Assembly: GCA_041685915.1 (NCBI GenBank)
Contig: JAWLEV010000004.1
Span: 1-62,120, forward strand
Source: Anaerolineae bacterium
Lineage (GTDB): Bacteria > Chloroflexota > Anaerolineae > UBA1429
Direction: 5' to 3'
Length of the DNA: 62,120 nucleotides
Shown here: one piece after another, positions 6,507 to 37,482 of the stretch
Layout: every line of letters starts with the position of its first letter
Numbering within the stretch: position 1 is the first letter of the stretch
Notes under the pieces: model-generated
The model's input: only the letters and a program-made list of their open reading frames with translations
Databases searched by the model: none
What the model was told of the DNA's origin: nothing
Program-made: the position numbers and the translations under genes

Positions 6507-7253
6507 ATGAGCACGTTTTATGCTGAAAGGCCGTTGATCATTGCCCATCGTGGTGCCAGCGCCGTGGCGCCGGAGAATACCCTGGCAGCGTTTGAAGCGG
6601 CCGTGGAGGCGGGGGCCGATGGTGTGGAATTGGACGTGATGCGGTGTCGCAGCGGGGAGTTGGTGGTCGTGCACGATGATACGGTGGATCGCACGACGGA
6701 TGGGTCGGGATTGGTGCGCACCATCTCGAAGGATAGCCTGCGCATGCTGGACGCAGGCTCCTGGTTTGGCCTCGAGTACGCCGGACAGCGCATCCCCACA
6801 CTGGAGGAAGCGTTGGCTTTTGTGGAGAGGGGCATCAGGTTGAATATAGAGATCAAGAGCCAGATGCTCCGCAGCGAAGGGTTGGAGGAGGAGATCGCCG
6901 ATATGATTCGCGCCCAGAGGTGCGAGGATAGGGTACTCATTTCTTCTTTCAATCCTCTTGTTCTCATGCGCATGAAAGACGTTGCCCCAGAACTTCAACG
7001 TGGATTGCTGTACGCGCCGGGATCCCTTCGCTCTTCCCCTCGCATATGGCGACATTTTGTACAGCCTCAGGCCCTGCATCCCCATCACAATGTGGTAGAT
7101 GAGGAATACATACACTGGGCGAGAGACAATGGCTACCGCGTCAACGTATGGACGGTAAACGAGGCGGCAAGGATGCGCGAGATGACGGCCCTTGGCGTCG
7201 ACGGTATCATCACGGATCATCCGGCCCGGCTGCGGCGGCTCTTATATTCGTGA
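6507..7253 (+). CDS. Glycerophosphodiester phosphodiesterase
   Basis: IAHRGAS..APENT, ELDV, HD, WTVN, GIITD motifs. Confidence 0.93.
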   Translation: MSTFYAERPLIIAHRGASAVAPENTLAAFEAAVEAGADGVELDVMRCRSGELVVVHDDTVDRTTDGSGLVRTISKDSLRMLDAGSWFGLEYAGQRIPTLEEALAFVERGIRLNIEIKSQMLRSEGLEEEIADMIRAQRCEDRVLISSFNPLVLMRMKDVAPELQRGLLYAPGSLRSSPRIWRHFVQPQALHPHHNVVDEEYIHWARDNGYRVNVWTVNEAARMREMTALGVDGIITDHPARLRRLLYS

Positions 7254-7274
7254 AAGCGGTCGATACGTCCCCCT

Positions 7275-8576
7275 TTAGTGGAGGGGAAAGGCGCGACAGA
7301 GTTCCAGGGCCCGTTCGCCCACCCTTTGTAGAGTTTCCGGATCGTCCGCGTTGTGTATGATCTGGAGGATGAGGTCCGCCACTTCCTCCATCTCCTCCTC
7401 GCCAAAGCCACGGGTGGTCACGGCGGGCGTTCCCAGACGGATGCCGCTCGTCACCCGGGCGGGGAGGGGATCGAAGGGAATACGATTCTTGTTGCAGATG
7501 ACGTTGGCCTCTTCCAACAAGTTCTGGACTTTTCGTCCCGTCAGATCGTGGGGTGCTAGATCGACCAGCATGAGATGGTTGTCCGTGCCCCCGGATACCA
7601 AGCGGAGCCCCTCCTCAGCCAGTGCCTCGGCCAGCGTCTGGGCGTTGCGTACGATCTGGCGCTGATAGTGGTCGAATTCGGGTGCCAGGGCCTCGCCAAA
7701 GGCCACCGCCTTGGCCGCTATGACGTGCATCAGGGGACCGCCCTGGGTGCCCGGGAAGACGGCCCTGTCGATGGCCCTGGACAGGTTCTCTTTGCAGAGG
7801 ATCAGTCCCCCGCGGGGGCCGCGCAGGGTCTTGTGCGTCGTCGCTGTCACGATATCCGCAAACGGTATGGGGCTGGGATGAACGCCAGCCGCGATCAGGC
7901 CAGCGATGTGGGCCATGTCGACCATGAGATACGCGCCCACGTCGTCGGCGATCCTCCGCAGGCGAGCAAAGTCGATGGTGCGGGGATAGGCGCTGGCACC
8001 GGCCACGATCAGTTTGGGCCCAAAGTTTCGGGCTTGGGAGGCCAGATCATCATAATCGATGCATTCCGTGTCGCGCCGCACGCCATAGTGGGCGAAATCG
8101 TACAGTTGGCCGGAGAAGCTTAGTTTATGTCCGTGGGTTAGGTGGCCTCCGTGGGCCAGGCTCATGGCCAGGACCCGGTCACCGGGATCGAGGATGGCCA
8201 TATAGGCCGCCGCGTTGGCCTGGGAGCCCGAGTGGGGCTGAACGTTCACGTGATCGGCGTCGAATAGTTTTTTGGCCCGCTGGATGGCCAGGTTTTCTAC
8301 GACATCCACGTATTGACATCCGCCATAGTAGCGTTGTTCGGGATATCCTTCGGCATACTTGTTTGTGAACAGCGTTCCCTGAGCCGCGCGCACGGCCTGG
8401 CTGGCATAGTTCTCGGAGGCGATGAGGTTGATGGTCTCCTCTGCTCGCCCTCTTTCGCCTCCCAGCGCCTGGGCGACGGACGGGTCAACATCATGCAACA
8501 GTTCATATATCGCAGTATGGGGTTCACATGGATCGTCAGCCAGAACGTCCAAAGCCCCTTTCGTATAATCGGACAT
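7275..8576 (-). CDS. glyA: Serine hydroxymethyltransferase
   Basis: [42 protein letters not shown]; GGAGG RBS before ATG 8576. Confidence 0.97.
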
Positions 8577-8588
8577 TCTTACCTCCAC

Positions 8589-8626
8589 AAAAAAAAAGTG
8601 CCCTGGCCCATGCAGACCCAGGACAC
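8589..8626 (-). terminator. Intrinsic terminator/attenuator immediately upstream of glyA RBS
   Basis: Minus strand GTGTCCTGG...CCAGGGCAC stem followed by T9. Confidence 0.8.
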
Positions 8627-8769
8627 AATCGGATTCCTGCAAATGTGCTAGATCATAACTGTGCTGGGACTGCCTCCTCCTCGAGGTTTGCCTTCCGGGA
8701 AGTTGAGGGATCAGTCACTAACGGAAAGACACACATAAGAATATATACCGAGTATTCGTCGCAGACAAA

Positions 8770-9621
8770 TCATCGTTCTCTCTCGATCTTATGCGACGGT
8801 AAAGTGAATCGGCGGAGGCGGCGTTTCTGCCATGTCCAGAGCAGGCCAGCGACGAGCACGAGAAGCAGGCCCGAAAGGGCGGTCCATCCCGTGCGCAGCC
8901 ACTTCCATATCCTCCACACGGAGGGCTGGTCCGACCCCGCAGGAAAATGGTCCTTCGGCGGAGGGGGTACCATCGTGGCCGTGGGTTCGGGCGGCCTGGG
9001 TGGCGTTGCCGTGGGCGTTTCAGGCATGGCTGCAGCGGAAGCGCTTGGTGTCTCCGATGCTTTCGGTGCTGGTTCCCCCTCCAACATTTCGACCTCGGGT
9101 TCTAGCCCTTCTGGAGTGGCCTCTTCCGTTGCACGTTCCGCCGCCGCAGGGGCTTCTTTTTCCGTGACTTTTTCTTCCCAGGGCGAGGGGGATGGAGTGT
9201 GAACCTCCTCTTGAGGAACCTCGGCCATCTCCACCTGAATATCTTGCGGTGCTTTTGTGGTTCGACCAGGTAGGGAGATGAATCCCTGGCTGATCGCCAG
9301 GTCGCCTGAGAGGAACAATATCAACAGCAGGGATACCACAGCTGTGGCCGTTCCGAGCGCCGTGTGCATCCTGCTCCAGAAACGGTACCGCTCTCGCTCC
9401 TTCTCGACCGAGGCTGGCAGTTCAAAGGAACGGGGTAGCGGAATGGCGGGAACGGCGTGCAGTAGCTCTACGGTGCTGCGAAGCGTCTCGAGTTCCTCCT
9501 GACAACGGGAGCATTCGGCGAGATGGCGCTCCACGCGCTCTCTTTCCCTAATAGTCAGCTGCCCATCCAGGTAGGTGGATAGATTCTTTTGTGTGAACCT
9601 GTGATCGAGGCGAAAGCCCAT
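8770..9621 (-). CDS. Zinc-finger (zf-HC2) anti-sigma factor with two TM segments
   Basis: LSTYLDG..HLAECSRC (HxxxCxxC); downstream of ECF sigma. Confidence 0.85.
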   Translation of the reverse strand: MGFRLDHRFTQKNLSTYLDGQLTIRERERVERHLAECSRCQEELETLRSTVELLHAVPAIPLPRSFELPASVEKERERYRFWSRMHTALGTATAVVSLLLILFLSGDLAISQGFISLPGRTTKAPQDIQVEMAEVPQEEVHTPSPSPWEEKVTEKEAPAAAERATEEATPEGLEPEVEMLEGEPAPKASETPSASAAAMPETPTATPPRPPEPTATMVPPPPKDHFPAGSDQPSVWRIWKWLRTGWTALSGLLLVLVAGLLWTWQKRRLRRFTLPSHKIERER

Positions 9622-9636
9622 CTTTTAGTATCCTGT

Positions 9637-10242
9637 CTAGCTGCTGTGTTCCGATTCATATCTTAGACGGAATTTCTCGGGTAAAAGTTCCTTGTGTTCG
9701 AGGAAATAGTCCCGGAGCTTTTTTCTGCCGCGATTGATACGCGATTTGACCGTTCCCAGAGGCACTGACGTGACCTGAGCGATCTCCTCATAGCTCATAT
9801 CCTGTATATCGGCCATGATCACCGCCACGCGCTGCTCATAGGGCAGCGTATTGAGCCCCTGCTGGATGCTCATACCCAGTTCTTCCCGTATGAGGCCGTT
9901 CTCTGCGGACTCGTCGTGATCCTCCAGGATATCGCTATGTTCTGGATTCTCGACGAGGTCGTCGACCGGGGTGCTGGGGTGGCGCTGTTTGTCACGAAGT
10001 ATGTCATAGCAGCAATTGGTCGTGATGCGCAGGAGCCAGGCTTTGAACGAACCGCCCCGGAACTGATCCAGGGCGCGATAGGCACGCAGAAAGGCATTCT
10101 GCGTGGCGTCCATGGCCCTGTCATAGTCGCCAAGGATACGATAGGCGACGTTATAGGCGAGCTGCTCGTAGGAACGCACAAGTTGGTTGAACGCTTCTAC
10201 GTCGCCCTGTTGAGCAGTCTCGATGATTTCCTTTTCGTCCAT
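9637..10242 (-). CDS. ECF RNA polymerase sigma factor (SigW/RpoE-like)
   Basis: GDVEAFNQLV, SFKAWLLRI, SYEEIA, GTVKSRINRGR. Confidence 0.93.
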   Translation of the reverse strand: MDEKEIIETAQQGDVEAFNQLVRSYEQLAYNVAYRILGDYDRAMDATQNAFLRAYRALDQFRGGSFKAWLLRITTNCCYDILRDKQRHPSTPVDDLVENPEHSDILEDHDESAENGLIREELGMSIQQGLNTLPYEQRVAVIMADIQDMSYEEIAQVTSVPLGTVKSRINRGRKKLRDYFLEHKELLPEKFRLRYESEHSS

Positions 10243-10304: not shown

Positions 10305-10333
10305 TTGACGGGGCAGTCCAATCTATCTATACT
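10305..10333 (+). promoter_or_regulatory. Sigma70 promoter for tRNA-Leu
   Basis: TTGACG-N17-TATACT ending 14 nt upstream of the tRNA. Confidence 0.7.
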
Positions 10334-10347
10334 CTTTTTTGGATCCA

Positions 10348-10430
10348 GCCGAAGTGGCGGAACGGAATACGCGGTGGTCTCAAAAACCACTGGAGGCAAC
10401 TCCGTGTGGGTTCGAATCCCACCTTCGGCA
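10348..10430 (+). tRNA. tRNA-Leu (CAA)
   Basis: GCCGAAG/CTTCGGC acceptor stem, GTGGT-CTCAAAA-ACCAC anticodon arm, long variable arm, GGTTCGAATCC T-arm; CCA not encoded. Confidence 0.95.
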
Positions 10431-10621
10431 TGATGATACTTTAGAAGGTATCTCTTGGCAAGCTGGGAAAGCGTTTTTCACTATATGAATGGGGGACGGG
10501 GTTGCCCGCCAATGCGATGAGGCGGCAACCCCATTTCTATGTCCCGTCATTCTTGTGAAAGTCCCTTTTCCTCTTATAGTGCGGATTACTTGCGGCGAAA
10601 TGTGTGAAAGGAGTTGACAAT

Positions 10622-37411: not shown

Positions 37412-37482
37412 CTGAGGGACAGGGATTCGAACCCCGATTTACTGATCCAGAGTCAGTCGTCCTACCATTAGACGATCCCTCA
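37412..37482 (-). tRNA. tRNA-Gln (CTG)
   Basis: TGAGGGA/TCCCTCA acceptor stem, ACTGA-CTCTGGA-TCAGT anticodon arm, GGTTCGAATCC. Confidence 0.95.

Follow-up and report, generated by a model that had tools for sequence, protein, structure and literature searches.

An uncatalogued leader with an intrinsic terminator upstream of glyA in one Anaerolineae genus: a candidate transcription attenuator

One-carbon units enter folate metabolism mainly through serine hydroxymethyltransferase (SHMT), an enzyme whose control is known for only a small number of bacterial phyla. The SHMT gene of the Anaerolineae genome analyzed here poses a question of this kind: what is the role of a leader in which a strong terminator stands between the gene's promoter and its ribosome-binding site (RBS)? 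The window, that is, the whole 62,120-nt stretch of DNA that was analyzed, carries glyA on the minus strand (7275..8576), and its 433-aa translation matches the SHMT family of Pfam (PF00464) with an E-value of 6.7e-166. The start region (8574..8586, minus strand), as read from the sequence, consists of a GGAGG RBS at 8586-8582 and an ATG at 8576-8574, and both UGGAGG and AUGUCCGAUU at the gene start are conserved in an alignment of the four species of the genus. The N-terminus of the enzyme (residues 1-26; window 8498-8576, minus strand) looks like a genus-specific extension when protein matches are compared: conservation across the genus's four species extends through the first ~25 residues (MSDY...CEPH...), whereas the Pfam SHMT domain begins at residue 27 and SHMT matches from other genera start at residues 14-31.

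A preliminary description of the locus, made from the sequence, had proposed a TTGTCT-N17-TATATT promoter for glyA. This promoter is present at 8768-8740 on the minus strand as a sigma-70-type site (8740..8768) with 9 of 12 consensus matches in a consensus scan, in a surrounding 4-kb region that holds 7 promoter-like sites vs 1.5 expected. Two of the three relatives (G001 and G002) have this promoter predicted at the orthologous position, and its columns are 79-97% identical in the four-species alignment. The glyA transcript probably starts near 8734-8732, and the leader from promoter to glyA is ~150-157 nt long on the minus strand. Upstream lies a gene for a zf-HC2 anti-sigma factor (8770..9621, minus strand), recognized by a domain match, whose stop codon is 1 nt ahead of the -35 hexamer of the glyA promoter; it is in turn preceded by an ECF sigma gene (9637-10242). 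Among 30 family loci, the anti-sigma gene is syntenic with glyA in 11 and the sigma gene in 10. The only Rfam matches in the window are two tRNA genes (10348-10430 on the plus strand and 37412-37482 on the minus strand), the first of which is located just past the ECF sigma gene and is accompanied by promoter-like sites on both strands at ~10305-10461.

The spacer of the glyA promoter (8749-8761, minus strand) contains an inverted repeat that reads CCGAC-N5-GTCGG in G002 and G003 and CCGA-N4-TCGG in G001, and that is present in a weaker form in the present genome; the repeat was mapped to L032 1306-1320 and L034 1309-1324, and in G001 and G002 it was picked up by a terminator scan. A DNA-binding regulator of glyA might use this repeat as its operator.

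The most conspicuous feature of the leader is an intrinsic terminator (8589..8626, minus strand, from folding) with the stem GUGUCCUGG/CCAGGGCAC, an 11-nt loop and a U9 tract. The two arms of the G+C-rich, 9-bp stem occupy 8626-8618 and 8606-8598, the U9 tract lies at 8597-8589, and the fold has a predicted energy of -19.6 kcal/mol, with values of -13.7 to -16.5 in the relatives. Runs of at least eight T are found at 2 places in the 62-kb window vs 0.41 matches expected. The U9 tract ends 2 nt (GU) before GGAGG and leaves no room for a downstream promoter, as the preliminary description had stated and as both the sequence and the folding confirm. A consensus terminator scan missed this hairpin because its 11-nt loop exceeds the 3-8 nt limit of the scan. 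Since no further terminator follows the anti-sigma stop codon (8770) ahead of the glyA promoter, the glyA hairpin must also stop read-through from the ECF operon in this genome. The features listed in the preliminary description were thus all confirmed in the sequence.

The two strands of the terminator differ in their conservation. AUUGUGUCCUGGG (8629-8617), which contains the 5' strand of the stem, is invariant at 13 of 13 positions in all four species. By comparison, only about half of the 3' strand is invariant, and the loop also varies in the same alignment. An invariant 5' strand opposite a variable 3' strand fits the existence of a second, competing partner for the former, and this asymmetry is the one positive structural hint in the alignment that the strand may have two alternative partners.

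Conservation of the unit was found to be confined to the genus. Among 61 related genomes, full-length BLAST matches to the 194 nt came only from the genus's three other species, at 80, 78 and 71% identity. Within these four species, whose SHMT proteins are 82-90% identical, the invariant or nearly invariant parts are the promoter, a 5' block UCUUUCCG, the block AACCUCGAGGAGGAGGC, CCCAG, UUAUG-NNC-UAG, AUUGUGUCCUGGG and the RBS. Pairwise identity of the leader is 0.67-0.88 vs 0.58-0.71 at four-fold degenerate sites of glyA for the same genome pairs. A different gene, divergently oriented, lies ahead of the promoter in G001, where both promoter and leader are still kept. The leader is therefore to be assigned to glyA. 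That it might be no more than the terminator of the ECF operon, an outcome that the preliminary description had named as undoing its reading, is refuted by the G001 arrangement.

A covariance model built for the leader (R1) was run over 42 genomes, the same set serving at the level of the order and of the family. Each genome of the genus gave exactly one match, whereas the order's other 38 genomes gave no match; with its filters off, the model matched no other leader among 23 family loci. Likewise, nhmmer with a four-species profile found nothing outside the genus among 30 upstream regions of family glyA genes, and a scan of 185,579 species genomes with a three-block pattern recovered only the three relatives. 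When metagenomes were searched with the SHMT protein, 80 loci were recovered, none above 71% identity and none from the genus; of these, only L064, a relative of G006, was of use. As the element is single-copy and genus-only in these searches, it has neither a regulon nor a wide phylogenetic spread, unlike established riboswitch classes. One short match elsewhere was set aside: a 28-nt stretch of G020 (contig C634; L145 154-181; E 0.002 per genome) that matches the leader core GCGAACCUCGAGGAGGAGGC at 89% and lies in a coding sequence resembling tryptophanyl-tRNA synthetase (trpS-like; peptide RAANLEEEAMP). This is probably a chance match over 61 genomes.

To obtain a consensus structure for the part of the leader that precedes the terminator's 3' strand, the four-species alignment truncated at that point was folded with RNAalifold, which yielded three helices, H1, H2 and H3. 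H1 (8691..8728, minus strand) pairs CUUUCCG (8728-8722) with CGGAAGG (8697-8691) and closes a 24-nt loop containing GACUG (8716-8712); five of its seven pairs are invariant, one has a change on one side and one is broken in G001. The most conserved block of the four-species alignment, AACCUCGAGGAGGAGGC (8668..8690, minus strand), follows and includes H2, in which CCUC (8686-8683) forms four invariant pairs with GAGG (8676-8673). CAGUC (8672-8668) can pair with the GACUG of the H1 loop, so that the GACUG/CAGUC pairing is, relative to H1, a loop-to-downstream pseudoknot; of its five pairs, one is compensatory (G-C to A-U) and two are mismatched in one species each. H3 (8617..8668, minus strand) pairs CCCAGCACAGUU (8668-8657) with GAUUGUG (8630-8624) and CUGGG (8621-8617), and is drawn as CCCAGCACA.GUU with GAUUGUG..CUGGG. 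It is the candidate antiterminator because the 5' strand of the terminator is used in it. All 11 of its counted pairs are kept in 4/4 species, with four varying on one side only, and it encloses the conserved UUAUG-NNC-UAG (8658-8648) together with a variable, indel-rich stretch. Within this enclosed segment, AUG-NNC-UAG (8648-8656, minus strand) has an invariant AUG and UAG in the four species, a middle codon that varies (AUC, CGC, CAC, GCC) and no Shine-Dalgarno sequence at a usable distance.

How well does comparative evidence support these helices? H1, H2 and H3 are possible in each of the four species, with pairing in 97% of cells over the 27 pairs counted. A single pair is changed on both sides, and 338/500 shuffles do as well; with only four sequences, this speaks neither for nor against covariation. 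The pairings named in that description, GACUG/CAGUC, GCACAGUU/GAUUGUGU and UGCAG..AUCC/GGGU-CUGCA, can all be drawn, and UGCAG/CUGCA is restricted to the present genome, the three relatives having a different sequence there. The antiterminator duplex (upstream leader against the terminator's 5' strand) showed no excess over dinucleotide shuffles (P 0.08-0.79), and the minimum free energy (MFE) of the leader had a z-score of ~0 with dinucleotide shuffles and of -1.4 to +0.4 (four species) with mononucleotide shuffles. The same duplex test also fails for 5/5 genuine T-boxes of the present genome, and the mononucleotide z-scores of T-boxes range from -2.3 to +0.4. Since genuine T-boxes give the same null result, neither test counts against the antiterminator model.

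Four metatranscriptome runs supplied RNA-library contigs that resemble the window at a level of 95-100% in the glyA region. One of them (X2) spans the region from the anti-sigma gene through glyA (7194-9652), another (X9) bridges the terminator (8336-8721), and a third covers the leader only (8590-8760). These contigs fit transcription through the region, if weakly: they carry neither ends nor strand nor levels, DNA carry-over is possible, and stretches that they leave uncovered carry no weight. They also reveal differences among natural strains: the T-run at 8589 varies between T8 and T9, being one T shorter in X2 and X9, and position 8730, which belongs to the leader's variable 5' end, differs as well. 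The breaks of two contigs (X7 and X8) at the leader ends are uninformative on transcript ends because they coincide with the T8/T9 polymorphism and nearby SNPs.

Leaders of a similar layout are frequent elsewhere in the order. TATAAT occurs within ~260 nt upstream of the glyA start at 22/29 loci, and a hairpin with a U-run stands between the TATAAT box and the RBS at 17 of these 29 loci, in 13 genera; such glyA terminators occur with or without an upstream sigma/anti-sigma pair. The glyA leaders of sister genera resemble the present one in promoter type (TTTGC.-N17-TATAAT), in length (65-206 nt) and in having a terminator just before the RBS. However, they cannot be aligned to it by BLAST, nhmmer or a covariance model, and their common descent is for that reason unproven. 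Among the 29 leaders, a k-mer search for an aptamer shared across the family found, beyond promoter/terminator, GC-rich and Shine-Dalgarno-like words, only CCTCAAC, in 5/29. The pattern CCUC-N3-12-GAGG, which was chosen post hoc, is present in 9/29 leaders but in 4 genera only, and MAFFT followed by RNAalifold on 7 leaders recovered the terminator alone.

Two groups of leaders within this set have features of their own. In five genera (L158-L162; G008, G011, G024, G004 and G009), the terminator has the common form GCUCC...UG[CU]GAGC[CU]U followed by a U-run, and a GCCUC-AAC...GAGGC hairpin and an A-rich linker lie upstream of it. Each of these genomes has the terminator pattern a single time, at glyA, and the 42 genomes contain one further match; only the scarcity of other copies is informative because the pattern was derived from those leaders. 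From these shared segments, the five-genus leaders look like a separate uncatalogued glyA leader family. The glyA leaders of genus g20 (L048 and L050-L052), for their part, have a promoter and no U-run, and share GCGCG...CCCGU...CGCGC...ACGGG, a possible pseudoknot, as well as a CCUC-N6-GAGG hairpin; glyA control in g20 may be translational.

In our judgment, the unit is best explained as a glyA-specific transcription attenuator that acts by premature intrinsic termination, a reading that we hold with a rough probability of 0.55. The promoter consensus, the terminator, the conservation, the link to glyA and the lack of a match to a known family are observed; the transcription start, the antiterminator and any conditional read-through are the parts that we infer. 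In such an attenuator, transcription would start ~7 nt after TATATT, and the nascent RNA would fold a 5' domain consisting of H1, H2 (CCUC/GAGG) and possibly the loop-to-downstream pseudoknot. GAUUGUGUCCUGGG could then pair backwards with CCCAGCACAGUU, making the antiterminator and letting the polymerase read into glyA. Alternatively, GAUUGUGUCCUGGG would pair forwards with CCAGGGCAC, which is followed by U9, and the transcript would end 2 nt before the RBS. The choice between the two would be set by a trans-acting signal on the conserved 5' domain or on the antiterminator; the signal might be a small molecule, which would make the leader a riboswitch, or else a protein or some other factor. 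A bolder version of this proposal, speculative in our view, is that the leader represents a new riboswitch class or a protein-dependent RNA switch that would sense the serine, glycine or one-carbon state, block its own terminator and thereby turn SHMT on, and that would be the local form of fast-evolving glyA attenuators across the order. Sensing of one-carbon compounds, also proposed in the preliminary description, is a possibility that derives from the gene context.

A diverged member of the ZTP, THF, glycine, c-di-GMP-I or T-box family would fit insofar as the gene context suits ZTP or THF and short look-alike fragments are present in the leader, yet this explanation is close to refuted. 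With all 4227 Rfam models, cmscan found nothing at E<=10 in 8450-8900 and no relevant match at E<=10 at the three orthologous loci, in line with the preliminary description, which could fit the leader to no known consensus; specifically, the THF, glycine and c-di-GMP-I covariance models had no match at the locus or its orthologues (E<=10), and no riboswitch family was detected in an Rfam scan of 25 glyA loci in the order's other genera. The best ZTP (RF01750) match genome-wide scored 20.8 bits, against a gathering cut-off of 39 bits, and lies elsewhere, whereas the T-box model (RF00230) recognizes eight other sites in the genome (L147-L154; E 1e-22 to 7e-16), none at glyA. As for the look-alike fragments pointed out in the preliminary description, CCUGGG is present in all four species, but GUGACUG and GGAAGGCAAAC are not kept: the former reads GCGAUUG, GCGAUUG and GAGACUA in the three relatives, and the latter differs in all three. 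Full-text literature searches returned no description of a comparable glyA leader or motif. There remains a metabolite riboswitch of a new class as a special case of the attenuator: an ON switch whose 5' domain (H1, pseudoknot and H2) would bind a ligand related to one-carbon units, serine or glycine and stabilize the antiterminator. In its favor, the architecture is as in known ON switches before glyA (pfl/ZTP; PMC2864571). Conserved blocks are also located outside the terminator, and the leader has no conserved short reading frame, its start being in frame in 2/4 species and the coding test not being significant. The ZTP and glycine sensors are not seen in this genome (91.9% complete), where no ZTP match exceeds the cut-off and the glycine riboswitch model found nothing at E<=1. 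However, the element is single-copy and limited to one genus, covariation is absent with four sequences, and the leaders of sister genera are unalignable, whereas the conservation of aptamers normally reaches well past a single genus; a new riboswitch class is accordingly a possibility that we put forward only tentatively.

Two further explanations were considered. The hairpin might be a constitutive element, an insulator or partial terminator that ends transcripts of both the ECF operon and the leader, the rest being an ordinary 5' UTR conserved through the closeness of the species. Upstream read-through must indeed meet the hairpin, since no terminator stands between the anti-sigma stop codon and the promoter; neither covariation nor excess stability was found; and the comparison covers only four fairly close species (82-90% amino-acid identity in glyA). 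We nevertheless consider it unlikely. G001, which lacks a co-directional upstream gene, keeps the whole unit, and polymerase must have some means of getting past a strong terminator (U9, -19.6 kcal/mol) that separates the RBS of an essential-type gene from its only promoter. An invariant 5' strand facing a variable 3' strand is, moreover, unexpected for a plain terminator, and the leader is conserved above the level of four-fold sites. A ribosome might instead do the regulating from a leader peptide: translation would begin at a leaderless AUG at the transcript start and run through a frame of 27-29 codons that stops in the antiterminator, and a ribosome at the stop codon would mask CCCAGCACAGUU and let the terminator form. 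An AUG does stand 3-5 nt after TATATT in all four species, the frame is stop-free in the four species over a 70-nt ungapped block, and in the present genome (G000) and G002 it extends for 27-29 codons, ending here at 8655-8653, just past the 5' strand of H3. Still, only 2/4 species have the AUG in register with the long frame, and in G003 and G001 it opens a 7-codon frame; a column-shuffle coding test gave P 0.22-0.72, with no frame significant; there is no run of Gly, Ser or other codons; and no comparable peptide is present in the other 25 family leaders. We regard this mechanism as improbable. Separately, the action of CsrA on a GGA-rich block was considered and dropped, as no CsrA gene was found in the genome (91.9% complete).

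No known RNA sensor was found before glyA in this order, and most glyA genes there have their own promoter, a long leader and an RBS-adjacent terminator. If the present leader is a conditional switch, it would constitute a new regulator of one-carbon metabolism in Chloroflexota as well as a testable orphan RNA; a constitutive leader would instead be a commonplace 5' UTR whose terminator leaks.

Three known systems provide points of comparison for the attenuator that we favor. PMC2864571 describes glyA as a common riboswitch target and the pfl/ZTP motif as being associated with glyA and other one-carbon genes, with overlapping terminators and with ligand binding turning the gene on. Like ZTP (RF01750), the present element precedes glyA and has a terminator that shares GUGUCCUGG with a candidate antiterminator. 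Unlike ZTP, it has no covariance-model match, its GUGACUG look-alike varies across the four species, and it was found in one genus only whereas ZTP is distributed over several phyla. Compared with trpL-type attenuators, it has in G000 and G002 a short frame that ends at the 5' strand of the antiterminator and is followed by the terminator, but the start is out of frame in some species and neither regulatory codon runs nor a coding signal are present. In the case of T-boxes, the glyA leader lacks a GGUGGNACC-type sequence, and no specifier-loop or tRNA-acceptor pairing was identified in it. What it has in common with them is the overall arrangement of a promoter, a long leader, competing antiterminator and terminator (a candidate pair here) and a U-run shortly before the RBS. 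A run of at least five U is found near the 3' end of 5/8 T-box match regions in the present genome, and because terminator-type T-box leaders are present, attenuation by intrinsic terminators appears to be in use in this organism. The glyA element itself is uncatalogued, but the type of control proposed for it, attenuation, is well known.
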